From positions 1-64,000 of the IMG/VR virus record IMGVR_UViG_3300045988_158059: a DNA stretch of 64,000 bases; one strand, written 5' to 3'. The notes under the pieces were generated by a model. It saw nothing but the letters and a program-made list of their open reading frames with translations, searched no databases and had not been told where the DNA came from. Shown one piece after another: positions 1 through 44,566 of this stretch (its first letter is position 1; each line of letters opens with the position of its first letter). This DNA comes from a virus. The position numbers were made by a program, and so were the translations under genes.

Positions 1-1
1 C

Positions 2-361
2 TTATAATCCTCCTAAACAATTAATATATTGTTTAACATTGCCATTATCATATGTCTTTGTAATCAATACGGCAGACACTGTTTGTCCTATTCTTCCATG
101 ATATTTACGATATGTACTTTCATCACTAAGTGAATATTCCACTCCGTTATAGTCTACCGTAATTTCATACTCGGCATAATCTGTCCGAAATTGTGGAACA
201 TGATTAATTATACCTATGAAACGAGTTTCTTTCGGTTTATAGTATTCATTAACAATTTTGACTTTTACACTTTCTTCTTTCTTATCAATACATTTAGCGC
301 AACCAGTCAACATAAATGCACTGATAAGCAGAAGAATTAATATAGTAGTTACCTTTTTCAT
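2..361 (-). CDS. putative lipoprotein
   Basis: Hydrophobic N-terminal signal peptide ending in the lipobox-like LTGC. Stop codon at the window edge (2-4). Confidence 0.45.
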   Translation of the reverse strand: MKKVTTILILLLISAFMLTGCAKCIDKKEESVKVKIVNEYYKPKETRFIGIINHVPQFRTDYAEYEITVDYNGVEYSLSDESTYRKYHGRIGQTVSAVLITKTYDNGNVKQYINCLGGL

Positions 362-415
362 TTTGATTCCTCCTGCAGTTCCTTTCTTGCTTTCATAAGA
401 ATTTATATGTAACTC

Positions 416-700
416 CTACTGTCCTTTATGTCTTGACATATCGACTGTTGTTTTAAAATATTTACCAATTGTTGCAATTGTTGCACAAATAACAGGGATC
501 ATTGGTTTCGTAAATCTAGTTGTATTAAATATGATATTTAATCCATTAACCAATGCGTCCCCTACAAAAAATTTCAGTATACATCCACCTATGTAAGCAA
601 ACATAAATGATAATGCCGGACTAATAACAAGAGTGAAAATCGCAAGGATGATTACTGTAAACGCACCTATTCCTTCTAATGTATTATCTTTTCTGTTCAT
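416..700 (-). CDS. small integral membrane protein
   Basis: 94 aa with two or three hydrophobic helices. No recognisable motif. Confidence 0.4.
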   Translation of the reverse strand: MNRKDNTLEGIGAFTVIILAIFTLVISPALSFMFAYIGGCILKFFVGDALVNGLNIIFNTTRFTKPMIPVICATIATIGKYFKTTVDMSRHKGQ

Positions 701-1109
701 TTAATTCCTCCGAATCTTTTTCATATTCAACTACAATTACATGTAATCCATATCTTCTTGCAGTATCAATCATATTTTTTGTACCTCGCGATTCACCATC
801 CCAAAATGCGATCAACGTACCAGAGCCTGATTCTGATGCAAATTTTGCCATTTCATTATTACGTCTAGGGCCAGCAGACTTTCCATAAACTCCCCATAAC
901 GCTTGAAATCTTATAACGGAGTAACCATTATCAAACGCATAACATTCACCAAGCCTATCTGCACCTTTTGCACCACCACTGATAACTCTAATTTGCTGAG
1001 TGTTATTAACTTGATTCTCTTCGATATAATCTGACACAGTTTTCTTAAGCAAACGATAATCATCAAAATCTCGTGAACCGGCTATAATAATATTCATCGC
1101 CTCGCTCAT
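684..1109 (-). CDS. DUF2493 / SLOG-superfamily Rossmann-fold protein (DprA/LOG-like)
   Basis: IIAGSRDF...ISGGAKGADRLGE matches the GSRDW...HGGA.GAD signature of the phage-associated DUF2493 proteins. Overlaps the upstream ORF by 17 nt. Confidence 0.55.
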   Translation of the reverse strand: MSEAMNIIIAGSRDFDDYRLLKKTVSDYIEENQVNNTQQIRVISGGAKGADRLGECYAFDNGYSVIRFQALWGVYGKSAGPRRNNEMAKFASESGSGTLIAFWDGESRGTKNMIDTARRYGLHVIVVEYEKDSEELNEQKR

Positions 1110-1606
1110 TCATCCAGCCTCCATAATTCCACATCATAATCTTTAAGTTCCTCTTCAATGATTTTATAAACCATTTCCCAGTCTGCTCCCCCTCTTCCAC
1201 AACCAATCTTATACGGAAGTGCTACTGAAGTTCTACAAAGATCTTTTCCTTCTAGTCCATTTTTTTCACGCCATACTCCAAAATGTTGCGAAATATATCT
1301 TAAACCATATCTAAAAGCTTCAAGATCTGTATACTGTTTACCATCATATCCATATTTATTTTGTGCGAATAAAGACAATACAATTTGACCTCTATCTTTC
1401 AATAAATATGCATCACACGTTCCGAGTAGTTCTTCCGACTCGAACTTACAAAACTCACAAAACTTTCTATAGTGTTTATAAATGCCTTCATCATAATCTC
1501 TTAATGCTTTAGCGACTCCAGTGTTCATTTCTCCTTGGCAGTTAACCTGATGAATTATAAAATCTGTCTTTGCATTAACGATATTACCTTCAATAATTTT
1601 AATCAT
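1106..1606 (-). CDS. macro domain protein, TARG1/OARD1-like ADP-ribose (1''-phosphate) hydrolase
   Basis: IIHQVNCQGEMNTGVAKAL and LPYKIGCGRGGADWEMV parallel the CISEDCRMGAGIA and MPRIGCGLDRLQWENV blocks of TARG1/OARD1. The start is placed at the internal MIKIIEG (ATG 1604-1606), preceded by an AGGAAAAG ribosome-binding site; the longest-ORF start would overlap the upstream gene. Confidence 0.75.
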   Translation of the reverse strand: MIKIIEGNIVNAKTDFIIHQVNCQGEMNTGVAKALRDYDEGIYKHYRKFCEFCKFESEELLGTCDAYLLKDRGQIVLSLFAQNKYGYDGKQYTDLEAFRYGLRYISQHFGVWREKNGLEGKDLCRTSVALPYKIGCGRGGADWEMVYKIIEEELKDYDVELWRLDE

Positions 1607-1616
1607 AAATCTTTTC

Positions 1617-2024
1617 CTATAAATCCTGAAATGTAAACTTCTCGCCACAGGAGCAAATCACTTCTCCAATAGTTCCGATTGATGTTGGTGTAAAGCACCA
1701 TGTAAGAGAGCCGCCTATGCAACCATGTCCCATTGCTCTCTGTTCCATAGTTTTCAAACCATGTTTCTCAGCATCATGTTTTAATTCCCACTCTCTGATT
1801 TTCTCTTGTTCTTTTTCTGAAATTGGAAATCCTCTATACAGATCCTCTTTCGCTTTTTTCAGTTCTGCTTCCATTCTCTGCATTTCAGAATCTTTATAAT
1901 GCTCATCTTTGAGCTTCTTGTTTTCTTCTTCTAAGTATTTAATTCGTTTTTCATAAGTATCTGCTTTATCAACAATCCCCTGACAAAGATCTGAAACTGA
2001 ATCCGTAAAATATGTACTACTCAT
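1617..2024 (-). CDS. hypothetical coiled-coil protein with C-terminal Cys/His cluster
   Basis: K/E-rich heptad region, then GHGCIGG...CSCGEKF, possibly Zn-binding. Located between the macro and KptA genes. Confidence 0.4.
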   Translation of the reverse strand: MSSTYFTDSVSDLCQGIVDKADTYEKRIKYLEEENKKLKDEHYKDSEMQRMEAELKKAKEDLYRGFPISEKEQEKIREWELKHDAEKHGLKTMEQRAMGHGCIGGSLTWCFTPTSIGTIGEVICSCGEKFTFQDL

Positions 2025-2026
2025 TT

Positions 2027-2566
2027 TTATACCTCCTTCATTAAATATTTCACTGGAACCCTTTTAGTCAGCCAAACTCCATTTTTAGATAAGTAAAATT
2101 TGTATCCATCTTTGTACATCTGTTCACTATTGATAGAATAAACAACTTCTTTACCATGTCTCTTGCCGACAGCTTTGGCGGTTTCAACATCTTTTGACAA
2201 ATGAACATATAAACGACTTTTAGGAATCAGTCCATTCTGATCAATAGACGCTATATATTTCTCGCCAGTTCCATGATAAAGAATTTTAGGTGGCTCTTTC
2301 TCTTCCAGTTCTACATCTACCGGAATTGAATGTCCCTGATTCGCTCTGATCAATGTCTTGTCATCATTGAAAGAATATCGCTGCTTATTGTCAGTCCGTA
2401 CAATTTCCTCTAAAAATTCTTTGTTGAATCCGGGATTGTTTTTAGCGATACCCTGAATCAGTTCTTCTACATTCGCCCAACCATGTTCATCTATAGTAAT
2501 ACCAATAACTTCAGGCTTATGTCTTAATATAAGACTTATATATCTACTAATACTTTGTAAATTCAT
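2027..2566 (-). CDS. kptA: RNA 2'-phosphotransferase KptA/Tpt1 family (NAD-dependent)
   Basis: [14 protein letters not shown]...GL..D..GW; RANQGHS; LYHGT; YVHLS. These are the hallmark Tpt1/KptA motifs. AGAGGAG ribosome-binding site upstream. Confidence 0.8.
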
Positions 2567-2581
2567 TCTCTTTACTCCTCT

Positions 2582-3055
2582 TTACTCCATAAATGATGAA
2601 ACGTGTACAGTTACAAAATCACTATGTGCACGAATATAATCCAAAGTTTTTACTGTATCCTCTACAATTGCAATCTGAGACGGCTTAAGCCCAAGCTTTT
2701 GTTGCAGCGTCTGAAGCACAGTAAGTTTTTCTGTCTTTTCTAAAGTAAAATAGATATTATCATCCGGAAGGCCGTAATTATCTTTGATAAAAGCTCTTTT
2801 GCCGGGGATCTCACTGAAAGGACTCTTTGAACAAGCATATACTTTGTCAATACCTTTCTTTTGAATGAACTCTTGCATTAATTTAATCGGACGCACATCT
2901 TTATACGGATTCTCACTGGAAGCTACAAGTCTATCCCATTCATCATCAGTCATACTATGACTTAATTCAGAGAACTCATACGGAGCAAGTACTCCATCTA
3001 CATCCATTACTACAATCACATCATCTTTTAATAAATAATCTGTAATTTTACTCAT
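2582..3055 (-). CDS. HAD-superfamily phosphatase (Pnkp-phosphatase-like or nucleotidase-like)
   Basis: N-terminal VVMDVDGVLA carries the HAD motif I DxDG(T/V). Size (157 aa) is comparable to a stand-alone polynucleotide 3'-phosphatase domain. Confidence 0.5.
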   Translation of the reverse strand: MSKITDYLLKDDVIVVMDVDGVLAPYEFSELSHSMTDDEWDRLVASSENPYKDVRPIKLMQEFIQKKGIDKVYACSKSPFSEIPGKRAFIKDNYGLPDDNIYFTLEKTEKLTVLQTLQQKLGLKPSQIAIVEDTVKTLDYIRAHSDFVTVHVSSFME

Positions 3056-4523
3056 CTTTGTTTCCTCCGTTTAATCTTTCTCTAATGTCTTCAAATGTTT
3101 CTTTATTGCAAGCTTTCCCATCTACAAATACGGTACTTAACGCTCCGTCACGAAATACATCATTATACCCGTCTTCACACTGTAATTCTCCATTGTCATC
3201 GTAATATATACAACAACACCCTTTATGAGATTTTTTCAAATGACTCGTATCGGTTTTTGGATCTTTATAGATCATAATTGGCTCGCCATTGACAATTCCA
3301 TAGGTGGCTTTCATAGCAATACCAAACATATCTCTGGTTACAACAACCATATGTCCATCGGGTTCTATAACTGCTGAGAAGCAAAATGCTCCGACTCCGA
3401 ATACGATATTGTTTGCAGCAAATCCTTTTTTCTTCAGTTTTTCCCATACCTGCTTTACATTATTAAGAGTACATCCGTCCCCATAAATAATTCCAATGTG
3501 CGGATCAAGCACTTTATATCCCTTGCTATTTACTGTTCCGCCGAATGTATTCCAAAGCTTTTCAATTGTCTCTACAGCAATTTCTACCATATCTCCGGAA
3601 TCTGGACGAACCAGAAGTTTACCATTATGCTGCATGATTTCTTTTTTACAAGCCGGAAGAATATTATCAATCATATTCCAGTAATCATAAGTGTCAGATA
3701 CCATACTGAAAGATGCATTAGGATATAGTTCCGTAAGTAGTCTTTTTACAAATGTGATTTCATCACCGTCTACTGCATAATTTGAAGCCATAACTGAATG
3801 TTCTGTTGATACAGCACCAATTCCGATTCTTTTAGTCCAACAGCAAGCATCATAATACGTATCTATATAATCAATGGCCGGAATTGTACTTGTCTTATCA
3901 AATGATAATAACCAAGCAGATGAACATCTTACTGCCTCTTCCATACAAGACATTCCTCTCATACCAAAGTCTGAGCAGGCCATTTCAGGTCTTAAAAAGT
4001 CATCACAGGTCATTTTATAGTAGTCGTTTGCAAGTTCTCTATACATATGACCAATTGTTGCATGAGCACATGGTTTCCAGAGTTCAACCTGCAGGATACA
4101 TTCTATCCACTGTACTACCCAAGCAAAATCTGGATGTGTGTTTGTAATTTCGATGCATGGGATGCCCATTGGTACTAATGTTCCCTCCGGAATAGCACGT
4201 ATCTGAATTGGAAGATAACCTAATTTATGAAGTTTCATAATAGGCTCTAGGTCATAACTATTTCCTAACTGTATATCAATACTGTATTTATATGTATGCT
4301 CAACTTCTACTGCTGTTAATTCAAAAAAGTTTTTATTAAAATAATCAATCAGATATTCTTCAATAAATGCCTGTAGACCAAAGAATACCATTTTGTTCTG
4401 ATTCTTAAGCATTGATCGTCGTGGAGTCCAGTAGGAAACAAGTTTTGTTAATCCTTTTGGATAGATTTTATTATGAATTTGTTTATATGTATCTGAAAGT
4501 AAAATTGCTAAAGTATTATTCAT
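3048..4523 (-). CDS. nadV: nicotinamide phosphoribosyltransferase family (NadV/NAMPT-like or Namat-like)
   Basis: N-terminal LLSDTYKQIHNKIYPKGLTKLVSYWTPR parallels the NAMPT block [29 protein letters not shown]. 491 aa, typical for the family. Confidence 0.8.
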   Translation of the reverse strand: MNNTLAILLSDTYKQIHNKIYPKGLTKLVSYWTPRRSMLKNQNKMVFFGLQAFIEEYLIDYFNKNFFELTAVEVEHTYKYSIDIQLGNSYDLEPIMKLHKLGYLPIQIRAIPEGTLVPMGIPCIEITNTHPDFAWVVQWIECILQVELWKPCAHATIGHMYRELANDYYKMTCDDFLRPEMACSDFGMRGMSCMEEAVRCSSAWLLSFDKTSTIPAIDYIDTYYDACCWTKRIGIGAVSTEHSVMASNYAVDGDEITFVKRLLTELYPNASFSMVSDTYDYWNMIDNILPACKKEIMQHNGKLLVRPDSGDMVEIAVETIEKLWNTFGGTVNSKGYKVLDPHIGIIYGDGCTLNNVKQVWEKLKKKGFAANNIVFGVGAFCFSAVIEPDGHMVVVTRDMFGIAMKATYGIVNGEPIMIYKDPKTDTSHLKKSHKGCCCIYYDDNGELQCEDGYNDVFRDGALSTVFVDGKACNKETFEDIRERLNGGNKDE

Positions 4524-4532
4524 AACTCCTCC

Positions 4533-4874
4533 TTAATCATTCGCTTCTTTTACAAGCTCGTCCACATTGTCTTTCAAATATTGACTGACTTTAATATAAC
4601 CATCTGTATTATTCTTCTCTGCAAATCCTCTGAATTTTACTCTGGCAGGATAAGCATTTGAAACTGATCCGTCTTCTTCGATATCTACACAAATCGCCCA
4701 TCCGAATGTATGTAAAATCATATTAATCCACCAGAGAAATCCGTTATTCTTAAATTCTTCCCATGATTTCTTTTCTACCATTTGAATTTTCTTATACTTA
4801 TCACATGTACTATTCGGACTGCAATAACATCTATCATGTTTATGTACACACGTTTCGCAAATCTGTGCTTTCAT
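4533..4874 (-). CDS. hypothetical Cys-rich protein
   Basis: CETCVHKHDRCYCSPNSTCDKY cluster, possibly a Zn-binding module. No family recognised. Confidence 0.35.
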   Translation of the reverse strand: MKAQICETCVHKHDRCYCSPNSTCDKYKKIQMVEKKSWEEFKNNGFLWWINMILHTFGWAICVDIEEDGSVSNAYPARVKFRGFAEKNNTDGYIKVSQYLKDNVDELVKEAND

Positions 4875-4952
4875 ATACTATTTCTCCATTCCTCTTGCAT
4901 TCTTTCATATTTCACATTGATTCTCCGAAAAAAGATTGCTTTTTTGCATGTA

Positions 4953-5255
4953 TTATTCTTCAAATTCTTTCTGTGCCACAACTCTACAACCATAAAGTCC
5001 TAACAAATCATGTAAATCAAACTCTTCAATATCGTTCTCATCAGCAATCTTATCGCTATGCACAAGAATTTCATCATCCATCTCGGCAGCATGAATTGTC
5101 TGTCTAATAATACTTAACATAGTTTCAACTGCATACTCATAACCTTTAAGATTATCTTCATTCATATCACTCGTAATAGTGTCTTTCATTTTATTCATCT
5201 GTTCCTCTAAAAACTTTGGAACATTACAAACTGTAAACATCATTTCTTCATTCAT
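4953..5255 (-). CDS. hypothetical acidic protein
   Basis: ORF with codon usage consistent with its neighbours. No motif. Confidence 0.3.
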   Translation of the reverse strand: MNEEMMFTVCNVPKFLEEQMNKMKDTITSDMNEDNLKGYEYAVETMLSIIRQTIHAAEMDDEILVHSDKIADENDIEEFDLHDLLGLYGCRVVAQKEFEE

Positions 5256-5718
5256 CCTCTACTGGTTCATATTTTTTAAACAATCTACCCATTGTCAAAT
5301 GATTAAATTTACCCAAATCCATTGCACAAGCAACAACATTATGAGGTGTAGAAGCCCCAATAAATTCACATAAATATTCTGTTAATGATGAATATTCAAT
5401 ATCTGTTGATATTTCTTCATCCCCAGGTTTTCTAATCCATCCAATCATTTTCTTATGATTAATTGTTATTTCTCCTTTATCAAGTGAATATAATACACTA
5501 CCATTGCTACTTCTCCACCAAGCATCTTCACCTGCGAATTTAACAAATTCTTCTTCTGACATATCTGAGATCCTATTAAATGTTTCATCATACATTAACC
5601 AAACTTCATATCTATTACTCTTGTATGTGCATATCGCTCCACATTCTTTTTGGTAATCTAATAAATCTAATAATACAAAAAAGAATTGTTCAAGATTATT
5701 TCCTAAAATTTCTTTCAT
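5248..5718 (-). CDS. hypothetical protein
   Basis: 156 aa ORF in the operon. No motif. Confidence 0.35.
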   Translation of the reverse strand: MKEILGNNLEQFFFVLLDLLDYQKECGAICTYKSNRYEVWLMYDETFNRISDMSEEEFVKFAGEDAWWRSSNGSVLYSLDKGEITINHKKMIGWIRKPGDEEISTDIEYSSLTEYLCEFIGASTPHNVVACAMDLGKFNHLTMGRLFKKYEPVEDE

Positions 5719-5766
5719 TTTCTCACCACCCTAAAGGAATAATAATTTGTTTCATAATATTCCTCC

Positions 5767-6570
5767 TTATCTAAACCTCTCAACCAGTTCAATCTTAGGA
5801 CTTTCCAGATTTGTCAAGATCGTATCTGTCGTATAAATCTTCTCAATCAGTCCATTGTTTTTCAGAAGCTCTCCTTCATAAATAGTGTTTTCACAATGAG
5901 TTACATAAAGATAAATCTTACCTACACCGGCCTCTTTCAGCTTTTTAGCACTATAATAAAAAGTACCACCTTTGCTGCAGATATCATCTACAATCAGGAT
6001 GTCTTTACCTGGTAGCTGATCAATTTCACCTGATAAATCTAAGCCTTTAATCTCTCCGGTCTCCCAATCTCTATTCTTAATACCGAAAGCATATGGAAGA
6101 TGTACTGCTGAAGAATATCGCTTCATGGATCCCGCATCCGGATAAAACATCATAAGGTTATTACTCGCAATCTTCTTAACAGCATCCTCAATCATTCGAT
6201 TCGGGGATTCTACATGTACTTTATTAAATAATGCGGCAGATACATCAGAATGCGGATCTAAAACTTCTACTCTTCCAAAATGTAATGAATTAATAGTCTG
6301 AGCAAAATATTTTAAAGTAAATAATTCGTTCTCATGCTTGACTCGATCCATACGTGCATCTGGGATATAAGGCATATATAAATTAGGCACTACTCTATGA
6401 TCCCAACAATATCTAGTAATATATTCAACTGCTGTTAACTCTTCCATTGATTCAAAGAACCATTCAATATTATCTCTGCACCATCCTCCAATAGGAGGAA
6501 TATCCTTAAATAAGAATGTTCCATCCGGATATTTATCAAGTTTGATTTCTACGCCGTTTAATTTAATCAT
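5767..6570 (-). CDS. ribose-phosphate pyrophosphokinase-like (Prs/Adps family, type I PRTase fold)
   Basis: DILIVDDICSKGGT is the PRPP-binding loop. N-terminal domain as in Prs but shortened (267 aa). Confidence 0.7.
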   Translation of the reverse strand: MIKLNGVEIKLDKYPDGTFLFKDIPPIGGWCRDNIEWFFESMEELTAVEYITRYCWDHRVVPNLYMPYIPDARMDRVKHENELFTLKYFAQTINSLHFGRVEVLDPHSDVSAALFNKVHVESPNRMIEDAVKKIASNNLMMFYPDAGSMKRYSSAVHLPYAFGIKNRDWETGEIKGLDLSGEIDQLPGKDILIVDDICSKGGTFYYSAKKLKEAGVGKIYLYVTHCENTIYEGELLKNNGLIEKIYTTDTILTNLESPKIELVERFR

Positions 6571-7668
6571 TTAGTTCACCTCAAAATAAAAATATTTTAC
6601 TTCCCAATCGTCTTTAAATGTATCACGAACAGATAAAGCTATCTTTCCACATTCATTCATATGAGTCATAGCCAATGTCTTCCGACATGGGATTCCAGAG
6701 GTTTTTATGTCTGCTTGACATCTTTCATGTAATTCTTCCACATTTAACTTCCCATATCTTAAAGTATCCTGATGTGGATTTGGAACATTAGTTAAATCTT
6801 TTATGTCAGGATTAATTTCTTCCTTATTACATTCAGTTGGGAACGCACCGGCTCCATGCCGTGTCATATAGGTACGAGTCACATAACAGGCTTCTATATT
6901 GATTTCATCAGTCCAATTTACAGACTTTATAATTCTTGCAGGATTTTTAATACCAGTGTTGGATGGAGTAAGATGCGGATAATATTCAGTATTATTTTGA
7001 TCTAAAAGAAGCCCCTGCCCATTTTCAAATACTATGGTATCGTATCCATTAAGTAATTGATCATTACTTACAAAATGTACATGTGACATCATAAAATCAA
7101 GATCTTTATAGTAATGATCTCGAAGCCCAGGATTTTTTACGGGATGAAATAATTCTTCTTCCTGTTCAGATAATGTAATTCCCATATGTCTAAACATATC
7201 CATATAATATGACCATGACAATGAATATGAATTAATATGTTTTTTATAGCGTTGAATTGTATTATAAATCCCCATTCCACAGCTTCCGTGTTTATTGTTA
7301 CCACGACTTCGTTCAATAATTTGATTTGCCATCATATCAAAAGGATTTGTAATCATACATTTTTCATGAACATACACATGAGGTTCCCATCCTAATTTCT
7401 TTAACTCTTCCCATTCTTCCTTGAATACCAGAGGATTTAAAATAAAATCCTCCGGTAAATATGTATCTGCTCCATTTAATGTTCCAGAGCCGAAATGATG
7501 AAAGACATGCCGGGTTCCATCTGATTTTAATACTGTATGTCCTCTCTGAGCGCCGCCATTTGAACACACAACGATACAGTTATCTGCATTTTTAGTATAA
7601 TAATCTGTTAATTTACCCTTGCCCTCGTCACCAAAGTTTGCTCCGATGACAATTTTTATATCTTTCAT
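6571..7668 (-). CDS. adenylosuccinate synthetase family (PurA-like, possibly PurZ-like)
   Basis: GDEGKGK P-loop, GGAQRGHT (PurA GGHNAGHT), HGSCGMGI (PurA TTGRGIGP), FENGQGLLLD (PurA FEGAQGTLLD), GAGAFPTE. Only 365 aa; the C-terminal ~60 aa of bacterial PurA are absent. Confidence 0.8.
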   Translation of the reverse strand: MKDIKIVIGANFGDEGKGKLTDYYTKNADNCIVVCSNGGAQRGHTVLKSDGTRHVFHHFGSGTLNGADTYLPEDFILNPLVFKEEWEELKKLGWEPHVYVHEKCMITNPFDMMANQIIERSRGNNKHGSCGMGIYNTIQRYKKHINSYSLSWSYYMDMFRHMGITLSEQEEELFHPVKNPGLRDHYYKDLDFMMSHVHFVSNDQLLNGYDTIVFENGQGLLLDQNNTEYYPHLTPSNTGIKNPARIIKSVNWTDEINIEACYVTRTYMTRHGAGAFPTECNKEEINPDIKDLTNVPNPHQDTLRYGKLNVEELHERCQADIKTSGIPCRKTLAMTHMNECGKIALSVRDTFKDDWEVKYFYFEVN

Positions 7669-7680
7669 AAGTTATTCTCC

Positions 7681-8580
7681 TTACCAAACAATAGCTCCTG
7701 ATTCATCTGTCTCTGCAGAAATTACAGTGGATGAGACTACTACAGGTTCATTATTTTCTGCAGCCGCAACTACAATCTTTACAATTTCATCTGCAATATC
7801 ATCAAGACGATTAATGGTCCTAAAATGATTATCATCAAGATACTCTGAAAAAGACTCAACTATTCCTCTCTGGTCATATCCATCACGATGATTTACATTA
7901 ATGTGATAAATATCAAATTTCTCAGATGTTTCCATATATAAATCTTTAGTTTCTACATCGGCCTGAAGCGTATCGCCAGTTGTAATTCCTAATCCAGAGC
8001 GTCGTCCTGATACTGGTAAGTACGGATTAAGACGTTCGTCCCCAATTGTGATAATTACGCCTTTTTTACCCCTATTCCAACAATCAAGTTTTGTATGACG
8101 AGATCCAAAATACCAAGCAGCAGTATATGACTCGAAACAATTACCTCCGCCGCCAAATTCAAAATAGATTTTATCAAGCTGCTCCGCAATTCTAATATCG
8201 GATTCAAATTGTGATGCCTGAATTGGATAATTATCATATGCTAAATCACCAATACCCATAATCATAAATTCTACATCTTTAATCTGACCATATAATTTTG
8301 TCATGATTTCATTAAGTCTTTTTGCAATTTCTACTGCGGTCTGTCCCATAGATCCTGTGACATCCAAAGCTAAAATGACTGGTAAAGTATTCGGATGCTC
8401 TTCATTATCACAACATTCTCTAATAACACCTTTAGGATCGAGTGCTGCATCAATATTTTTTGCTTTAAACATTTCCTGATTAGAATAACTTCCTGTAACT
8501 ACTCCTCGTGAATCAGTGCCATATCCTTTTGATGTTGAATAACTTACAAAACTTCTAGTATCCCAACTTCCGCTTCCCAT
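7681..8580 (-). CDS. von Willebrand factor A (vWA) domain protein
   Basis: ALDVTGSM is the MIDAS DxSGS motif. Confidence 0.65.
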   Translation of the reverse strand: MGSGSWDTRSFVSYSTSKGYGTDSRGVVTGSYSNQEMFKAKNIDAALDPKGVIRECCDNEEHPNTLPVILALDVTGSMGQTAVEIAKRLNEIMTKLYGQIKDVEFMIMGIGDLAYDNYPIQASQFESDIRIAEQLDKIYFEFGGGGNCFESYTAAWYFGSRHTKLDCWNRGKKGVIITIGDERLNPYLPVSGRRSGLGITTGDTLQADVETKDLYMETSEKFDIYHINVNHRDGYDQRGIVESFSEYLDDNHFRTINRLDDIADEIVKIVVAAAENNEPVVVSSTVISAETDESGAIVW

Positions 8581-8582
8581 AA

Positions 8583-9215
8583 TTATTCATCCTCCTCTAA
8601 ATCATCTTCACTATCTTCTGTGTCTGTATCATCCATGCTAAAATCAAACATACCGTCAAATACATCCCCCATACCACCATTCATCATCATAAATGGCATC
8701 ATAGCGTTCATTGGATTACTGTCTGTTCCAGTTCCGGTACCGGCCGCTCCATTCATCATCTGAGACATCATCATGTATTTAAAGATTTTATTTGCACTAT
8801 TCTTATCTTTTCCAAGATTACTTCCGAACATAGATACAATTTTCCCATAGAAATAAGTATTGCCCATAAATACATGGCGCTCCGGCAGAATTGTTTCAAC
8901 TGTAGAATCTTCATAATTGATTACAGTGATCTTTGTTTTATCTGCTTCGATGACGCACTTAGGTTTGCCATTTACAAGGATGATGTCTCCTTTAGCCACC
9001 TTATTTGTTGGAATGACGAAGAAAAAGTTTTCATCTACTCCAGGAAATACAAAATTACCGCAGTTTGTGAGCTTTCCGGATTTAACATTGTAACTCTTAT
9101 ATCCATTGGAAGTTTTTACTGCAATATTACCGCTCATGGATAACTTACACATTCCACTACCAATTTTCCCAAACATTCCATTCATAAAATTATTCATCAT
9201 TTTAATTCCCTCCAT
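8583..9215 (-). CDS. hypothetical Met/Gly-rich protein with acidic tail
   Basis: Met-rich termini and a DDTDTEDSEDDLEEDE C-terminus. No family recognised. Confidence 0.4.
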   Translation of the reverse strand: MEGIKMMNNFMNGMFGKIGSGMCKLSMSGNIAVKTSNGYKSYNVKSGKLTNCGNFVFPGVDENFFFVIPTNKVAKGDIILVNGKPKCVIEADKTKITVINYEDSTVETILPERHVFMGNTYFYGKIVSMFGSNLGKDKNSANKIFKYMMMSQMMNGAAGTGTGTDSNPMNAMMPFMMMNGGMGDVFDGMFDFSMDDTDTEDSEDDLEEDE

Positions 9216-9223
9216 TGTTTAAT

Positions 9224-9778
9224 TTAATTTCTATTGATTACATTAATCTGGCAGCTTTCCATTACATCAAGAGCCGCTTTATGCTTTTCCGGTGTTGATC
9301 CTGCGCAGCATGATGCATCCACTGTGATTTTTGCCTCTGGATAATAAGTTTTAATCAAAAGAGCGTTCGTAATAACACAAATGTCTGTGCATACTCCAAT
9401 AATTTCAATATCTAATAAAGAAGAATCATATGCGATACCAAATGTTTCTTCCCAATCCCAGTCATCAAATCCAAAAGTAGATTTACAACATACCATAAAA
9501 CTATCGAGATTTTTATAATCAAGTTCATCAACAATTTCCCAACCTTTAGTACCATACATACAATGTTCAGGAAGTTTTCTGCCCTCTGAAGTATCTGCGT
9601 AATCTGAATGATGAGTATCCTTTGTAAGAATTACATAGTTCTTATTATTCTTATATTCATCAAATTTCTTTTTCACATTTGGTACAATAGCTTGTGCTTC
9701 CGGTGTTCCAAGAACTCCTGTCACAAAATCATTCTGCACATCAATTACAATCAGAACTTTCTTCTTCTCTTTTTCCAT
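9224..9778 (-). CDS. isochorismatase-family hydrolase (nicotinamidase PncA-like)
   Basis: VLIVIDVQNDF and IIGVCTDICV (catalytic Cys) are the isochorismatase/PncA signatures. Start placed at MEKEKKK (ATG 9776-9778), preceded by a GGGAG ribosome-binding site. Confidence 0.7.
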   Translation of the reverse strand: MEKEKKKVLIVIDVQNDFVTGVLGTPEAQAIVPNVKKKFDEYKNNKNYVILTKDTHHSDYADTSEGRKLPEHCMYGTKGWEIVDELDYKNLDSFMVCCKSTFGFDDWDWEETFGIAYDSSLLDIEIIGVCTDICVITNALLIKTYYPEAKITVDASCCAGSTPEKHKAALDVMESCQINVINRN

Positions 9779-10100
9779 TTTTATTCTCCCATTCTTTAAT
9801 TTGCTGTGCTCCATCTTCAACTTGCTGCTTATCATGTCTTGAATAATTATCTGCTGGACCATAAGCACCTTTATGTCGATATGAAGCATGTCCTTTACGA
9901 GTATTAGTTTTTACTGCAGTACCACCTCGACCAAGCAAACCATTATGACCTTTTGCTAATATACCAGATTTAAATTCAGGTTCATCAATCCATTCTCCAA
10001 GATATCTTCCGGAATATTTTTGGCCCTTAATTAATCTGCGTCTCTTTTTAATACTTTTTAACCTTTGTTCTCTCAAATATCCTCTTTTACGTTCCGGCAT
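9741..10100 (-). CDS. hypothetical basic protein
   Basis: Arg/Lys-rich 119 aa. GGAGG ribosome-binding site 7 nt upstream of the ATG. Confidence 0.4.
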   Translation of the reverse strand: MPERKRGYLREQRLKSIKKRRRLIKGQKYSGRYLGEWIDEPEFKSGILAKGHNGLLGRGGTAVKTNTRKGHASYRHKGAYGPADNYSRHDKQQVEDGAQQIKEWENKNGKREEESSDCN

Positions 10101-10102
10101 TA

Positions 10103-10402
10103 CTATTCCTCCAGTCTATACAAAATAATTGGTCCACCTTCAATATAGAACGTCGCATTGTAATCTATAAATTCTCTAGCCTCATCTTCTGTCATATCCT
10201 CATGGTTAACTAAAGATTCAATCATTTTTTCGTAATCATATATTGCTCTATCATCAGAAGAAATACCAAGAAATGCATCTTCATAAGATGGATTTGTAAA
10301 AAATATCGTCCCCTCGTATCCGGCCTCTAATAACAACCGTTCTGTTTTTGATGCTTGATCTTCATATATATTATCTGATGTAAGTTCTGACATATCTACC
10401 AT
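10103..10402 (-). CDS. hypothetical acidic protein
   Basis: 99 aa ORF translationally coupled to its neighbours. Confidence 0.35.
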   Translation of the reverse strand: MVDMSELTSDNIYEDQASKTERLLLEAGYEGTIFFTNPSYEDAFLGISSDDRAIYDYEKMIESLVNHEDMTEDEAREFIDYNATFYIEGGPIILYRLEE

Positions 10403-11145
10403 TATGCGATCCTCACAATCTGTTCATATATAACTATATCTTTTATTGTTATTGCTTTATTGTCGTGGTAATGCCCACACAACCAACGCTTATAATCAAC
10501 ATTGCGCCTTATTTCTTCCAGATAATTTGTTAACTTATCCGGCTTATATAGTCCATGTGATAATAATGCTGCTGTAGAAGAAGCTGTACAATGTGTTAAG
10601 ATAAAATCTACCTTATTATTATGTTCTGCCAGATTCTTTATACCCTCATCCATCTCTTCTTGATTTGGCATTTCTCGTTCCCACCATGAAATATGATTGA
10701 TTCGGTACATTTTATCTGGATCATCTCTCCATTCCTTTACTCTTGGATCGTCAATCTCTAATACTCCATCTGAAATATCATGACTGGCAGCCCCTCCAAA
10801 GGTAAAGAATTTTAATCCGTCTATATCAAATACCTGTCCTCTCATAAGATGAATTATCGATGGTTTAATAAAATGCACCTTACCACCATGCCATTCTTCT
10901 ACCGGATAAGAATCTAATATATCGTAATTCTCATGATTTCCGTCAATAAAGAGTGTTGTGAAATGCTTCTCTTCAAGCCAATTCAGATACCACCTTTGCT
11001 GCGGTGAATCTCTCCATATCCCAAAATCTCCAAGAATTATCACATAATCGTCCTTCGACATCTCACGCTGTTCGGGGAAAGAATCCATATTAACTCTATG
11101 GATCCAATCCCCATGCGTATCTCCGGTTACCCAGATTATTGGCAT
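10402..11145 (-). CDS. calcineurin-like metallophosphoesterase
   Basis: VTGDTHGD, ILGDFG and IDGNHEN are metallophosphatase motifs I-III. The track start is TTG; the ATG at MPIIW is preferred here. Confidence 0.75.
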   Translation of the reverse strand: MPIIWVTGDTHGDWIHRVNMDSFPEQREMSKDDYVIILGDFGIWRDSPQQRWYLNWLEEKHFTTLFIDGNHENYDILDSYPVEEWHGGKVHFIKPSIIHLMRGQVFDIDGLKFFTFGGAASHDISDGVLEIDDPRVKEWRDDPDKMYRINHISWWEREMPNQEEMDEGIKNLAEHNNKVDFILTHCTASSTAALLSHGLYKPDKLTNYLEEIRRNVDYKRWLCGHYHDNKAITIKDIVIYEQIVRIA

Positions 11146-11294
11146 AACCCCCAAATGAAGTAGTTAACGCTTAACATAAGTAATGATATTGCAGAAGGCC
11201 AATAACCATCCGGAACAACATTATTCATAACAACGCTCATGCATATCACACTGATAATGAAAAACACAATATTTTTTAATATCGTTTTAATCAT
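11136..11294 (-). CDS. small hydrophobic protein (micro-ORF, 52 aa)
   Basis: Hand-translated MIKTILKNIVFFIISVICMS... Its ATG overlaps the upstream stop (TAATG), with GGAG upstream. Absent from the track because it is under 60 aa. Confidence 0.35.
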   Translation of the reverse strand: MIKTILKNIVFFIISVICMSVVMNNVVPDGYWPSAISLLMLSVNYFIWGLCQ

Positions 11295-11770
11295 TATTTC
11301 GTTAACTCCTTATACTGATCAAGCAAGGCCGCCAGTTCTGGATTCTCAGTCGCATACATTTCATATTTCTTTGTTACATCCATCTGTTTGATAACGGCAT
11401 CCATATCTTTTTTAAGCTTCTCAGCTTTCTTTCTATTTTCAACACGCTGGTCATATGCAGATGTATCAACTCTACAGATAATTTCAGCAGTAATATTTTT
11501 ATTATATTTTACTTCTGCTTCCGGTACTGTTAAAATTTCTTTAATTGTCAGAACATCTTTGTTACAACCACTTACTAAAACCTGGTCTCCGGCTTTATAT
11601 GTATTGCCATCGTCAAAGACTGCATAATAATAGTCTTTCTTACAACAACAAGTTACTTCTTCAATTACTGCTACTGCATAATATCCTGTTAATTTTGCCA
11701 TTTGTCCATTCTCCTCTTCTAATTTAATTATATTTAACAAATAACCTTCATACGTTTTAAACTTAACCAT
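11294..11770 (-). CDS. hypothetical protein
   Basis: 158 aa ORF. No motif. Confidence 0.4.
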   Translation of the reverse strand: MVKFKTYEGYLLNIIKLEEENGQMAKLTGYYAVAVIEEVTCCCKKDYYYAVFDDGNTYKAGDQVLVSGCNKDVLTIKEILTVPEAEVKYNKNITAEIICRVDTSAYDQRVENRKKAEKLKKDMDAVIKQMDVTKKYEMYATENPELAALLDQYKELTK

Positions 11771-11776
11771 ATCTGC

Positions 11777-11950
11777 TTACTTCCCAAATACTGATTTAAG
11801 TAATAAGAATACAAGCCAAATTCCTGTAGCAATCAACCAGCTGAAAGCGACCCCGAAACATAATGTGATCAATTTTATAATTACACATGTTACGATCCAA
11901 CTTAAAGCTAATGCCAATAATGACACAATAATAAGTAAAATTCCCGTCAT
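11777..11950 (-). CDS. small membrane protein (57 aa) coupled to the SPFH gene
   Basis: Hand-translated MTGILLIIVSLLALALSWIV...: two TM helices. ATG 1 nt after the SPFH stop (GGAGAATAAtATG). Confidence 0.45.
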   Translation of the reverse strand: MTGILLIIVSLLALALSWIVTCVIIKLITLCFGVAFSWLIATGIWLVFLLLKSVFGK

Positions 11951-11951
11951 A

Positions 11952-12914
11952 TTATTCTCCTTTTACAGTTGCCGTTCCTGATGTTAAGTCTCCTGCGTCA
12001 ACAATTGTTGCTGCATTTCCACCTTGCACCTTCGGCACATCACCATTCCATTTATCAATTTTCTGTTTCTCAATAAGCTCTGGAGTAAGAGACTCAGCAA
12101 TTTTCTTATTTGCTTCTGCTTCAGCATCCGCTTTAATTCTTGTTGCTTCCGCTTTACCTTCAGCAGTGATCTTCGCCTGTTCAGCCTCAATAGCGGCCTT
12201 TTCTTTATCCTGTTCTGCTGCAATAAGAGCAACTTCTTTATCTTTATCTGCCTGTACCTTTGCAGTCTTAGCTTCAATATTTGCAAGTTCCAGTTCCTGC
12301 TGTGCATTTACTTTCTTCTGAATAGCTGCCTGAGTTTCATCATCGGTTGAAATCGAAGTAAAGTTTACAGTATCAATGATAATTCCATATGGCTCAAATT
12401 TCTTTTTTAAGTATTTGTCAAGTGCTTCATTCAGTTCCTGGCGTTTATCACCAAATACATCTGTTACCGGATACTTAGCAGTTACTTCCTGTGTCCACGC
12501 TTTCATCTTTGGTTTAATGAAAGTATTTTTTACACTTTCACCGGACTGACCTTTAAATCTTGTAAATACATCAGCAACTTGATCCTGATCGAACTTATAA
12601 GAGAATTCCAAATCAACAAGAAGCTGTTTTCCATCAGCAGTAGGTGTTTTAAAACTCTCATCTTTTGGTGAATCACCTTTATCTTCTGAAGTCAGATAAG
12701 ACTGTTCAATACCAATTGAATACAGTGATGTTTTTACTGTAGGTGAAATCAAATGCCATCCCTGTGGAAGAGTATCATTTGAAATTCCGCCGTTCATCTT
12801 GTATTCTACAGCTACATAACCAGCAGGAACTCTTACCGTACACTTTGCTACACAAATTAATCCTGCTACAATTATTACTGCTAATCCAACCCCACCTAAA
12901 AATCCTTTTCTCAT
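11952..12914 (-). CDS. SPFH/band-7 (stomatin/prohibitin/HflKC-like) membrane protein
   Basis: N-terminal TM anchor, SPFH-like core, then a long A/E/K-rich coiled coil. Confidence 0.6.
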   Translation of the reverse strand: MRKGFLGGVGLAVIIVAGLICVAKCTVRVPAGYVAVEYKMNGGISNDTLPQGWHLISPTVKTSLYSIGIEQSYLTSEDKGDSPKDESFKTPTADGKQLLVDLEFSYKFDQDQVADVFTRFKGQSGESVKNTFIKPKMKAWTQEVTAKYPVTDVFGDKRQELNEALDKYLKKKFEPYGIIIDTVNFTSISTDDETQAAIQKKVNAQQELELANIEAKTAKVQADKDKEVALIAAEQDKEKAAIEAEQAKITAEGKAEATRIKADAEAEANKKIAESLTPELIEKQKIDKWNGDVPKVQGGNAATIVDAGDLTSGTATVKGE

Positions 12915-17471: not shown

Positions 17472-17682
17472 TCCTTTCCGGTATATATAAGATGTGATGA
17501 TTTTCATCATTACACATAATCTTAAAAAGTCTTGTGCTTACATTGCCATCTGAATCAAGAAATCTTTTGCAAGTATCTTTCTTGCAGCACTCATTACCAT
17601 CTTTCTGGCAAAAATAATAACTATCTTTTTCATTATCGCATCCAACTACAATATTAGTTCCGTTTGCAAAATATACATTCAT
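17452..17682 (-). CDS. hypothetical small Cys-rich protein
   Basis: 76 aa; CQKDGNECCKKDTC. Confidence 0.3.
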   Translation of the reverse strand: MNVYFANGTNIVVGCDNEKDSYYFCQKDGNECCKKDTCKRFLDSDGNVSTRLFKIMCNDENHHILYIPERNETNNA

Positions 17683-18431: not shown

Positions 18432-18522
18432 GTCTACATATCTCCTTGAGTTAATTTAATTTGTTTTCCCTGTGTCATTATAATAGCACCGTAGGCTTCT
18501 GATGTCAATACTAAAAGTTAAT

Positions 18523-32994: not shown

Positions 32995-33132
32995 TATTTC
33001 ACCTCGCTTTCCGAAGTGGAATAACTTTGCAGTTTATTGTCACACTGACATCTATGCACTGATCTTTTAAGATAGTGCTTCAAATATTATTTCCTATTCC
33101 TCATTTATACGTGCCTGTATAATTAAATTTTA

Positions 33133-34084: not shown

Positions 34085-34282
34085 TTATCCTATTAAAAAC
34101 ATCCCAGTAATAAATAATGAGAGTAATATAAACATAAGAATAAAATCACCGATAGCCAAAACAAGTCTCTTTCTATCATCAAGAATATCGAGTCTTGAAA
34201 AAGACATACCAATTGTAAAAATTAATGATAATAGTATTCCTATCAATAATGATCCTATATAAGATTTCATATCTAACCTCAC
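34085..34282 (-). CDS. small two-TM membrane protein
   Basis: 65 aa, two hydrophobic helices. Confidence 0.4.
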   Translation of the reverse strand: MRLDMKSYIGSLLIGILLSLIFTIGMSFSRLDILDDRKRLVLAIGDFILMFILLSLFITGMFLIG

Positions 34283-35058
34283 ATTTCAACAATTCTGTAT
34301 AATTGTCTATTCAGGTAATGTCCAAGTAAATAATCATTATCAAGTCCAGTTCCGTGATAAAATTCTTCCGCAATTCCACCACCTATAGCACATAACGTAT
34401 CCATGTCACACTTTAACGAAAATACATTTCGCAAGAAACTTTCATAATCATCACTTTCCAGAAAACATCTTATTGCAACAGGTACACTTCCTTGACAAAT
34501 TTCATTCCACTGATATGTCTTTCTATAGTCTTCAATTTTATATTCAACACTATATTTGTAATCATCTTTTGGATAGTATTTCTTCACATATTCATAGATT
34601 TCTGCTTTTGTAACACCTGTTCTTGCCATATAAATACACATTGCCGTTGCAACCGCCCCTTTAATTCCTTCTGGATGATTATGTGTACACTCAGCAGACT
34701 TTGTAGCCCATTCGATAACTTCTTTTTCTGTATTAAAATGTTCTCCAATATAAGAACATCTCATTGCAGATCCATTACCGCAACTTCCATATGCAGTTTC
34801 ATCATCGTATCTTAACCACGTTTCAAAATTATTTCCATATCCTGCATTTGGATATTTTCTTCCCCATTCTCTATATGAATCTGAGAAAGATTTATTATTA
34901 ATAATTGCTAATTTAGCAGCAAGTGTCATTACAGTATCATCTGTAAAATAACATCTATCAGTAAATAACTTACAATTCTTCCAATCTAAATCAATTGGTC
35001 TACCAAATTCATATTGTGAACCTGCAATATCACCTAAGATTGCACCAACGATAGCCAT
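34279..35058 (-). CDS. ADP-ribosylglycohydrolase (ARH/DraG family)
   Basis: GAILGDIAGSQYEF, FTDDTVMT, GNGSAMR and THNHPEG match the ARH motifs (GDALG, TDDT, GNG(A/S)(L/A)MR, THxHP). Confidence 0.8.
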   Translation of the reverse strand: MAIVGAILGDIAGSQYEFGRPIDLDWKNCKLFTDRCYFTDDTVMTLAAKLAIINNKSFSDSYREWGRKYPNAGYGNNFETWLRYDDETAYGSCGNGSAMRCSYIGEHFNTEKEVIEWATKSAECTHNHPEGIKGAVATAMCIYMARTGVTKAEIYEYVKKYYPKDDYKYSVEYKIEDYRKTYQWNEICQGSVPVAIRCFLESDDYESFLRNVFSLKCDMDTLCAIGGGIAEEFYHGTGLDNDYLLGHYLNRQLYRIVEM

Positions 35059-44071: not shown

Positions 44072-44566
44072 TTATTTAACAAACATCCAGTCTTCTGCGA
44101 GCATATCCGACTGGGTAGCAAGCCATCCCATCTGTACGCCAGATGTTCCAACAAAAGCGATGGCTTTATTTCCGATTGCGTCATGCTCACAATTTACAAT
44201 CTCATTATCGGCAGTCTTATAAGAAATCCCAGTGGCAAGCTGAATGTACTGTTTCTTTCCATTCCAGCCTTTACGTGCCACTTTAAATCCTCTTTTCAGG
44301 TACTTAATCGCTTCTCCGAATGAGAATGTTGCTTCTCCACCAAGTATTGGGCAGTTCCGACTATCCGCATAAACCCACTCATCGGAAAGAATATTCTGAA
44401 GCGTATACTCCACATTCTGTGTTTCTCTTATATCCAGACAGCCGCCATCTTTTGTGTACATAAGGATTGTCTGGGATTCTTCATCCCACCACCAATAACC
44501 CGCCCATGACGGAAGTTTTACTGGAATTCCAGATTTCATTTCTTCAAATGCTTCTTTAAATTTCAT
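44072..44566 (-). CDS. tandem DUF2829 protein (Tad2-like)
   Basis: Two repeats. The second, FSFGEAIKYLKRGFKVARKGWNGKKQYIQL...WLATQSDMLAEDWMFV, matches the DUF2829 pattern as I recall it (..GEAL.ALK.GKKV.RKGWNG...SQ.D.LAEDWE.V). The first, MKFKEAFEEMKSG...LQNILSDEWVYA, is more diverged. Confidence 0.65.
   Translation of the reverse strand: MKFKEAFEEMKSGIPVKLPSWAGYWWWDEESQTILMYTKDGGCLDIRETQNVEYTLQNILSDEWVYADSRNCPILGGEATFSFGEAIKYLKRGFKVARKGWNGKKQYIQLATGISYKTADNEIVNCEHDAIGNKAIAFVGTSGVQMGWLATQSDMLAEDWMFVK

Follow-up and report, generated by a model that had tools for sequence, protein, structure and literature searches.

Positions 1–11200 of a 64,000-nucleotide stretch of viral DNA (IMG/VR record IMGVR_UViG_3300045988_158059, positions 1 to 64,000; the window in what follows) are spanned by a run of minus-strand open reading frames (ORFs), and the 14 ORFs called between 684 and 9889 hold what appears to be most of an operon for rebuilding NAD+. 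An earlier note on this DNA had listed eight adjacent genes here as touching NAD or ADP-ribose (ADPR) chemistry and had taken them for one contiguous counter-defence toolkit. The ORFs that it named are all present, on the minus strand and close to the positions it gave, but six more are interleaved with them, encoding a 135-residue protein, three small products, a vWA-like protein and a 210-residue protein (Table 1). According to synteny tables of IMG/VR relatives the block is a mosaic of four layers, and its ORFs sort into an NAD+ reconstitution operon, a three-gene trio, a variable three-ORF insert and accessory genes (Tpt1, HAD and SLOG). The genes for a PncA-type nicotinamidase, an Adps-type kinase, a Namat-type transferase and a macro-domain protein recur together among the relatives, whereas the trio, the three small ORFs and the accessories vary. 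In more distant phages these four genes overlap in a compact operon of that order, which reads PncA-Adps-Namat-Macro-NadE in locus L121 and its relatives, and the same genes are found in many human-gut phage contigs of 100–210 kb in IMG/VR. Megablast returned no GenBank phage relative at the nucleotide level; relatives were found at the protein level only. One relative (L089) lies within a Blautia obeum contig of 763 kb, which makes a Lachnospiraceae host, for example Blautia, probable. A promoter and terminator scan of positions 1–12000 gave counts equal to chance expectation and did not define operon boundaries, and an Rfam scan found neither riboswitches nor other RNA elements in the block, its only hits being four tRNAs elsewhere in the window.

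By its sequence relationships the core of the interval belongs to an already known kind, NARP1-AP. NARP1 (Osterman et al. 2024; phages SPbetaL1 and Bas63) has two enzymes: Adps, homologous to Prs, produces ADPR-pyrophosphate (ADPR-PP) out of ADPR and ATP, and Namat, homologous to NAMPT, joins ADPR-PP to nicotinamide (bioRxiv 10.1101/2024.02.11.579819). NARP1-AP, from Vibrio phage Gary, extends it with Adpp, a Poa1p-like macro phosphatase that turns ADPR-1''-phosphate into ADPR and defeats aRES (bioRxiv 10.64898/2026.01.28.702374). The window appears to share with NARP1-AP the Adps, the Namat-clade transferase and the Poa1p-like macro protein in one co-directional operon, and the same presumed purpose of rebuilding NAD+ from the ADPR-type breakdown products of NADases, so the NAD+-centred counter-defence locus proposed in the earlier note has a published architecture. 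The kinase, which had been called PRPP-synthetase-like, is indeed a Prs homologue but falls with Adps: it is 41.5% identical (2e-45) to the characterised Adps of SPbetaL1 (gene 130311–131054), and true Prs structures match it only at 1e-13. Lys165 and Arg167 are invariant, with Lys165 aligned to the SPbetaL1 catalytic Lys162; the placement of this Prs-family kinase in the Adps clade is by identity and alignment. The transferase is of the NAMPT family, as had been proposed, but not of the NAMPT clade, since it matches the PDB entries 9w5x/9w5w, which carry the published Namat motif GSFTYQYNTRD, at 4e-118 (398 bits) and human NAMPT at 2e-59 (203 bits), and is thus far nearer to SPbetaL1 Namat. 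The two alternatives that the earlier note had left to profile comparison, Namat or NAMPT and Adps or Prs, are in this way resolved as Namat-clade and Adps-clade. Three ORFs separate the transferase from Adps, within the operational definition of NARP1 used by Osterman et al. (a Namat-clade transferase no more than 10 genes from Adps), and a NARP2 system, with a NAMPT-clade enzyme and Nmnat in the absence of Adps, does not fit a locus with a Namat-clade transferase and Adps.

The macro protein has no Pfam match. Its PDB matches are the DarG macrodomains 5m31/5m3i (7e-6), yeast Poa1p (0.005) and TARG1 (about 0.9), which places the domain, described earlier as TARG1-like, in the TARG1/DarG/Poa1p clade. 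Over its full length it is 30% identical (4e-16) to a protein annotated as phosphatase and encoded between Adps and Namat in Vibrio phage K408, and in L041 and L121, whose operons are compact, a macro gene comes right after Namat. In the window the HAD gene, Tpt1 and the ORF for the 135-residue protein part it from Namat, making it the fourth gene downstream; the published survey of NARP1-AP counted Adpp within two genes of the NARP1 operon. Against the NCBIfam DarG antitoxin model the 166-residue protein scores 47.6 bits (cut-off 250) over residues 2–51 only, and it lacks the C-terminal DarT-binding domain. It is probably Adpp, judging from these similarities, and the anti-ADP-ribosylation role suggested earlier is less likely than an ADPR-1''-phosphate phosphatase activity.

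The transferase departs from published Namat in its nicotinamide pocket. Ser212 stands at the position of SPbetaL1 Namat Asp215 (human NAMPT Asp219) and Ser239 at that of the pocket residue Ala242, and the canonical NARP1 pocket, with Asp215 directed to the amide and Ala242, is therefore not found in this protein. In SPbetaL1 Namat, Asp215 hydrogen-bonds nicotinamide, and the D215A mutant is 8-fold impaired with this substrate (PMC12774641). For human NAMPT, Asp219 is described as defining substrate specificity and D219S is tabulated as switching substrate affinity (PMC7096376; PMC4919578, Table 2). Among the best 149 cluster representatives drawn from a library of 1.84 billion proteins, the residue pairs at 212/239 are Asp and Ala in 85, Ala and Ser in 28, and Ser and Ser in 19. 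The second position follows the first: it is Ser in 59/59 Ser/Ala-type sequences and Ala in 30/30 of the Asp/Glu type. In a neighbour-joining tree the Ser/Ala-type transferases form a single clade. The adenine clamp differs as well. Its motif reads GVGAFCFS[AVIEPDGHMV]VVTRD, with a 10-residue insertion in the SCH motif, and does not reproduce the Namat clamp (GSX-phi-X-phi-X-phi-TRD with the SCL Arg40), the equivalent of Tyr396 being Val and that of Arg40 being Met; the first two aromatic positions of the clamp are kept. An insertion of 9–10 residues is common to the whole gut-phage lineage, and basal Ala-type members such as that of phage Phass-1 keep the canonical motif. Many representatives of the Namat family (P0242, P0260, P0273, P0278, P0328 and others) are 800–1100 residues long and match the query in 2–4 stretches, often breaking near residue 316, which suggests inteins or other large insertions.

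The operon opens with the nicotinamidase gene. In addition to the isochorismatase-family match (PF00857, 1e-22), which agrees with the earlier call, the best PDB match of the protein is Pyrococcus horikoshii PncA (1ILW, 3.5e-13) in an end-to-end alignment, and the catalytic Asp11, Lys97 and Cys132 and the metal site Asp52-x-His54 and His70 are invariant in the family alignment; its score against the NCBIfam nicotinamidase equivalog is far below the cut-off (31 and 174, respectively). At its other end the operon is cut short by the window at nadE. Locus L030 has 98.95% nucleotide identity to window positions 1–6581, and the alignment stops exactly at position 1. The window minus strand ends with ...TTAGGAGGATTATAAG, in the order AGGAGG, stop codon of the ORF at 2–361 and one further base, and the base right after the window edge in L030 begins the ATG of a 253-residue NH3-dependent NAD synthetase (PF02540, 6e-53). 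This NadE (L030 19219–19980) has the PP-loop motif GISGGKDSS, and its best PDB matches are NH3-dependent NadE enzymes (4e-31). A small membrane ORF and a NadM-like cytidylyltransferase/adenylyltransferase (L030 20215–20790; PF01467, 6e-11) follow it.

The type of the transferase covaries with PncA and NadE, which the earlier note had overlooked. The gene for PncA lies directly upstream of Adps in most related loci. In a sample of 88 unique transferases and 220 loci, with PncA-like genes scored within 8 kb and NadE anywhere in the fetched locus, a PncA-like gene accompanied 58/58 transferases of the Ser/Ala type and 0/30 of the Asp/Glu type. NadE, recognized through clustering of neighbour proteins as a protein of about 250 residues matching Pfam NAD_synthase (PF02540, 1e-45 to 1e-53), accompanied 52/58 and 0/30, respectively, and the six Ser/Ala-type loci lacking it are all cut within 3.2 kb downstream. 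A sample seeded only with SPbetaL1 Namat, and so blind to PncA, split 14/15 against 0/34 (Fisher 2e-11, a p-value not corrected for phylogeny). When five divergent representatives of the Ser/Ala/Val type were picked blind to their context, NAD_synthase was directly downstream in 5/5, and Isochorismatase and a Prs-like gene were upstream in 4/5, the fifth contig being cut; one Asp-type control had neither NAD_synthase nor Isochorismatase nearby, and a second, P0289, sits on a contig of 1.7 kb, too short to inform. Two of the five blind-picked loci look bacterial and lie beside an NrtR-type regulator. NrtR senses ADP-ribose. Operons of the order PncA, Prs-like, Ser/Ala-type transferase and NadE were seen in apparent bacterial chromosomes beside such a Nudix-related regulator in L223 (6570–10492) and L224 (128–4614). 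In L218 a single polypeptide (9437–10639), encoded immediately after an Ala-type transferase, combines a NADAR domain with NadE. In Phass-1 (L001, OQ749652) the protein annotated as hypothetical, WIC39685.1 (12974–13897), is an NAD synthetase (PF02540, 7e-45) encoded downstream of the nicotinamidase, Prs and NAMPT genes of that phage, its annotated NAMPT being an Ala-type transferase.

A different filling of the same frame is found in sister gut-phage loci that lack Adps and Namat. Loci L151, L160 and L167 (at 7983–12495 in L167) have the order PncA, DUF5662 or another protein, PncB, NadD-like and NadE, a complete Preiss-Handler set, with a PncA 55% and a NadE 65% identical to the enzymes of the window lineage; about 11 further IMG/VR loci carry such an operon, and we found no description of it as a phage route to NAD+. 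PncB and NadD make deamido-NAD (NaAD) from nicotinate. Since PncA and NadE frame either this pair or Adps and the transferase, the simplest inference by analogy is that the replacement pair would do likewise with ADPR-PP as donor.

We put at about 60% the probability that the interval encodes most of a NARP1-AP-like operon for NAD+ reconstitution, in a version that runs on nicotinate and is thus deamidated. Host NADase defences would split NAD+ into nicotinamide and ADPR or ADPR-1''-phosphate. PncA would convert the nicotinamide to nicotinate and NH3, the macro phosphatase would convert ADPR-1''-phosphate to ADPR, and Adps would make ADPR-PP from ADPR and ATP. The Ser-type Namat homologue would then join nicotinate and ADPR-PP to give NaAD, from which the phage NH3-dependent NadE encoded beyond the window edge would make NAD+ with NH3 and ATP; NadE could re-use the ammonia released by PncA. 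For the wider claim, that a large clade of phage operons, some apparently bacterial, encodes such a 'deamido-NARP1' (PncA, Adps, Ser/Ala-type transferase, in some cases Adpp, and NadE) with a transferase activity that makes NaAD from nicotinate and ADPR-pyrophosphate, the evidence tips only slightly in favour. Such an activity would combine the way in which NARP1 recycles ADP-ribose with the first and last steps of Preiss-Handler salvage. Two reasons for the detour can be conjectured: charged nicotinate may be retained in the cell, and gut anaerobes may deamidate nicotinamide so fast that a nicotinamide-dependent Namat is starved.

Several points weigh against this interpretation. The nadE gene is not inside the window itself, and the best PDB matches of its product include the Francisella NadE (3fiu), which we take to amidate nicotinate mononucleotide (NaMN) rather than NaAD. 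Because the clamp of the transferase has an insertion, has lost the equivalent of Tyr396 and has Met for Arg40, the donor could differ from ADPR-PP. The Ser/Ala-type transferases form one clade, so the Fisher test is not phylogenetically independent and the covariation may mirror a single ancestral event, in which case one origin of the PncA/NadE association may have been maintained down to 31% identity. The specificity change of human D219S is taken here as reported in a table. The deamidated detour costs one more ATP, and any selective advantage is only conjectured. Finally, the pathway steps in this lineage are predictions from sequence and gene context.

The strongest competing explanation is an ordinary NARP1-AP acting on nicotinamide, in which PncA and NadE are a parallel aid feeding the host Preiss-Handler enzymes PncB and NadD, and the change from Asp to Ser is neutral or merely tunes affinity. 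The membership of the transferase in the Namat clade and the adjacency of Adps agree with it, the sister phages with PncA, PncB, NadD and NadE indicate that PncA and NadE can work without Adps and Namat, and Namat tolerates alternative donors (PMC12774641). It would have PncA compete with a nicotinamide-using Namat for one substrate within one operon, however, it is at odds with the impairment of D215A, and it leaves unexplained why two pocket changes occur in every transferase linked to PncA and NadE and in none elsewhere. We regard it as rather unlikely. Still less probable is a phage Preiss-Handler pathway based on phosphoribosyl pyrophosphate (PRPP), in which the Prs-like kinase makes PRPP, the transferase is a nicotinate phosphoribosyltransferase making NaMN, a NadM/NadD-type enzyme and NadE (or a NadE of the NMN-synthetase type) finish the synthesis, and ADP-ribose is no substrate. 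The NadM-like gene after nadE in the lineage, the altered adenine clamp, the top PDB match of NadE to the Francisella enzyme and the PRPP activity that Namat retains in vitro (PMC12774641) all point this way, whereas the kinase groups with Adps and not with Prs, purified SPbetaL1 Adps gave no product in a Prs-type assay (bioRxiv 10.1101/2024.02.11.579819), and the canonical clamp persists in the basal Ala-type members. Among 101 Ser/Ala-type loci, the set to which all gene frequencies below refer, an adenylyltransferase is present in 22 and Adps in 100, and a macro protein of the ADPR-1''-phosphate phosphatase type, which makes sense only if ADPR is used, in 80. These two explanations are rated lower than the nicotinate version because the pocket changes, the near-universal Adps, the frequent macro protein and the rare adenylyltransferase are left unexplained.

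Very unlikely is the composite island of the earlier note, with all eight genes including the PurA-like one and a macro protein that strips ADP-ribose off macromolecules in the manner of DarG or TARG1: the macro protein does have DarG macrodomains as its best sequence matches, the window does contain ADP-ribosylglycohydrolase (ARH) and Tad2-like genes, and all genes are co-directional with no terminator standing out, but the DarG score and missing domain given above, the conserved position of the macro gene inside the NARP1 operon and the independent distribution of the PurA-like gene described below count against it.

Table 1. Features of the operon, its insertions and related genes in the window.
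Feature	Positions	Strand	Evidence and remarks
PncA-type nicotinamidase, first gene of the operon	9224..9778	-	likely start at the Met of MEKEKKK; longer ORF reaches 9889
210-residue protein with Met/Gly-rich acidic tail, first gene of the trio	8583..9215	-	no significant family match
vWA/MIDAS-fold protein	7681..8580	-	phrog_2971 5e-84
Divergent member of the adenylosuccinate-synthetase superfamily, 365 residues	6571..7668	-	PF00709 1e-38
Adps-type ADP-ribose pyrophosphokinase (Prs homologue)	5767..6570	-	phrog_619 9e-68; under Pfam cut-offs
Three small ORFs (4533-4874, 4953-5255, 5248-5718)	4533..5718	-	match only PHROGs without known function
Namat-family ADPR-PP transferase, Ser-type (NAPRTase/NAMPT_N)	3048..4523	-	PDB 9w5x/9w5w 4e-118
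Small cap-less HAD-fold phosphatase	2582..3055	-	start overlaps end of Namat; TIGR01509 near cut-off
Tpt1/KptA RNA 2'-phosphotransferase	2027..2566	-	PF01885 3e-48
135-residue protein, coiled-coil N-terminus, Cys-rich C-terminus	1617..2024	-	no Pfam, PHROGs or NCBIfam match
Macro domain of the Poa1p/DarG/TARG1 clade, probably Adpp	1106..1606	-	phrog_335 1.7e-37
YAcAr/YpsA-related SLOG domain protein	684..1109	-	PF10686 2e-13; start overlaps end of macro gene
Two small membrane/lipoprotein ORFs (416-700, 2-361), then ribosome-binding site of off-window nadE	2..700	-	ORF calls
Calcineurin-like metallophosphoesterase upstream of the operon, pathway membership unproven	10402..11154	-	PF00149 1.5e-9; 37/101 related loci
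ADP-ribosylglycohydrolase, far from the operon	34279..35058	-	PF03747 2e-28
Protein with Tad2-like (DUF2829) C-terminal domain, far from the operon	44072..44566	-	PF11195 8e-24, residues 82-163

The accessory genes and the ORF for the 135-residue protein are lineage-specific additions between Namat and the macro gene, confined to the wider lineage of the window, and probably handle or produce other ADPR derivatives. The HAD gene is present in 40/101 loci, Tpt1 in 39/101, the ORF for the 135-residue protein in 46/101 and SLOG in 26/101, and in relatives the 135-residue ORF likewise sits between HAD/Tpt1 and the macro gene. The earlier calls of SLOG (DUF2493), KptA/Tpt1 and HAD for these genes hold. 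The HAD protein has no Pfam match, scores 28.1 bits against TIGR01509 (cut-off 29.4) and gave nothing useful in a phmmer search of PDB sequences, but its motif I (DVDGVL) and motif IV (EDT) do not vary, placing it in the superfamily, and its AlphaFold2 (AF2) model (pLDDT 91.3) has MDP-1, KdsC and AphA as top Foldseek matches. SLOG reaches 50.4 bits against PF10686 (cut-off 28.2) and matches phrog_289 at 7e-30. Tpt1 exceeds the NCBIfam NF002014 equivalog cut-off (261.1 bits; cut-off 239). In its reaction Tpt1 uses up NAD+, with nicotinamide and ADPR-1'',2''-cyclic phosphate as products. ADPR-PP, too, appears to convert to an ADPR cyclic phosphate (bioRxiv 10.1101/2024.02.11.579819). Because both would yield ADPR cyclic phosphates, it can be speculated that the macro protein, the HAD protein and the metallophosphoesterase recycle such by-products. 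Macro-SLOG neighbourhoods have been described, and Tpt1 together with the RNA ligase and tRNA genes noted below may serve RNA repair (PMC9503650).

The three small ORFs and the trio entered the operon as separate insertions, for which no link to NAD was seen. In 80 IMG/VR loci, the majority of which lack NARP genes, the gene for the 210-residue protein is invariably accompanied by the vWA-like and PurA-like genes, and the trio is missing between PncA and Adps in L106–L118, whose Adps proteins are 85–98% identical to that of the window. The vWA-like and PurA-like pair is kept in phages of Firmicutes, Vibrio, Rhizobium and Mycobacterium, thus in phages of four host phyla; the former lies directly upstream of the latter in Vibrio phage Va1 (L087 5031–7113), Rhizobium phage TM30 (L002 6977–9251) and Mycobacterium phage I3 (L086 5638–8320). 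The claim that the PurA-like gene belongs to one contiguous toolkit fails on this distribution, as it is part of an independent and widely conserved module absent from the same operon in close relatives, and no link of the protein to NAD or ADP-ribose was seen; a search for one that considered re-amination of deaminated adenylates and a nitrogen-donor role found no evidence. In the Blautia obeum prophage relative L089 an extra 241-residue ORF lies between the two genes of the pair, and a Tad4 (PF25186) gene (834–1142) lies about 9 kb from it. The vWA-like protein has a DxTGS MIDAS-like motif. A profile of eight diverse members matched nothing in PDB sequences and only noise in Pfam; the fold assignment comes from AF2 and Foldseek, nearly all PDB matches at E<=0.001 being integrin I/vWA domains, with a mediocre model (pLDDT 63, pTM 0.68) that makes it a tentative one.

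The PurA-like protein, to judge from its sequence, is neither PurA nor PurZ, because it keeps Asp13 of the GDEGKG motif and scores far under both NCBIfam equivalog cut-offs (108.9 bits for PurA, cut-off 402; 48.5 bits for PurZ, cut-off 300). What stands of the earlier PurA-like call is the superfamily: the protein shares the adenylosuccinate-synthetase fold, the P-loop and the His41 region with PurA and PurZ/PurZ0, the PF00709 match covers only profile positions 1–280 of 416, and no C-terminal motifs for aspartate or guanine binding can be made out. In PHROGs its family bears the name of PurZ. A Z-genome reading was considered and rejected, since Asp13 is Ser in all 147 phage PurZ/PurZ0 proteins (PMC12884076), the PurZ score is below the cut-off, no PurZ structure is among the PDB matches, and the gene is always paired with the vWA-like gene and accompanied by the 210-residue protein instead of DatZ/MazZ. 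Genes labelled PurZ that are paired with vWA genes are thus not markers of Z-genomes. The three small ORFs between Namat and Adps occur only in L019, L025, L030 and L031 of about 35 close relatives, which suggests that accessory genes have a hot spot in the Namat-Adps gap.

Elsewhere in the window, the ARH gene, the Tad2-like domain and an NAD-dependent ligase (phrog_3869, 2e-176) were found as the earlier note had proposed. Positions 32074–37189 contain a cluster of an RNA ligase (PF09414, 32074–32994), the ARH gene and four tRNA genes (Lys-UUU, Met, Leu-CAA and Gln-UUG), which with Tpt1 may make up a set for tRNA repair. Parts of an ABC importer are encoded at 37965–39311 and 42126–43476, namely an ABC ATPase, a permease and a binding protein of the NMT1/THI5 type with an OmpA-like domain fused to it. 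At 49843–53102 a MrpR-like recombinase, a DndB-like protein and a tyrosine integrase stand side by side, which fits the prophage state of L089, and a nucleotide-metabolism cluster at 14186–19296 comprises NrdG, NrdD, a guanylate-kinase-like protein, a weak ThyX-like match and an HD-domain protein with an ExoX-like C-terminus. Nearly all genes of the window are on the minus strand, and the GC skew is uniformly and strongly negative (-0.15 to -0.45 per 2 kb) at 29–38% GC.

NARP1, NARP1-AP, NARP2, NARP3 and the clustering of Macro, SLOG and KptA are already published, the core of Adps, Namat and macro protein in 2024–2026 and the Macro/SLOG/KptA co-occurrence in large phages in 2022, so the core of the layout is not undescribed, as the earlier note took it to be; the nicotinate variant looks new. 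Compared with NARP1-AP, the window transferase has Ser, or Ala in its relatives, for Asp215, Ser for Ala242 and the 10-residue clamp insertion, the predicted intermediate is NaAD, and PncA and NadE, which in the samples examined never accompany an Asp-type Namat, stand at the two ends of the operon; in the window the operon is also interrupted by unrelated modules. The entry and exit enzymes are those of the bacterial Preiss-Handler pathway (PncA, PncB, NadD and NadE), with NaAD the penultimate compound in both, here as a prediction, but PncB and NadD, which use PRPP and ATP, are replaced by Adps and the Namat-type transferase, which would use ADPR and ATP. As a consequence of this replacement the ADP-ribose moiety would be recycled and not built anew. 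NARP2 (Nampt and Nmnat; Vibrio phage KVP40) and NARP3 (PnuC and NadR; PMC13464706) likewise restore NAD+ in phage infection against depletion. The window lineage has a NadM-like adenylyltransferase just off the window; it differs from both systems in that the transferase is outside the NAMPT clade, Adps is present and neither PnuC nor NadR was found. Osterman et al. reported NARP1 and NARP2 together in no phage (bioRxiv 10.1101/2024.02.11.579819). The survey of viral NAD+-ADPr systems by Iyer, Burroughs, Anantharaman and Aravind (2022; PMC9503650) already contains Macro, SLOG, KptA, ARG and NAD+-salvage neighbourhoods in large phages and lists NadV, NadM and NadR as phage enzymes of NAD+ synthesis; its text makes no mention of PncA, nicotinamidase, NadE or deamidation. 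Our literature search, whose coverage excluded subscription-only papers, found none linking NARP1 or Namat with PncA, NadE, nicotinate, NaAD or a substitution of Asp215.

NAD+ depletion is among the commonest bacterial strategies against phages, and NARP1, NARP2 and NARP3 are known phage answers to it. If the nicotinate version is correct, it would add a new nicotinate:ADPR-PP transferase activity and a route from ADPR through NaAD to NAD+. The residue at the position of NAMPT Asp219, Asp in one case and Ser or Ala in the other, would then be a simple annotation rule splitting two types of Namat, and new annotations would follow for many genes of gut phages that currently go by NAMPT, Prs, isochorismatase or hypothetical. 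It may also show, although this is conjecture, how phages of gut anaerobes cope with rapid deamidation of nicotinamide.

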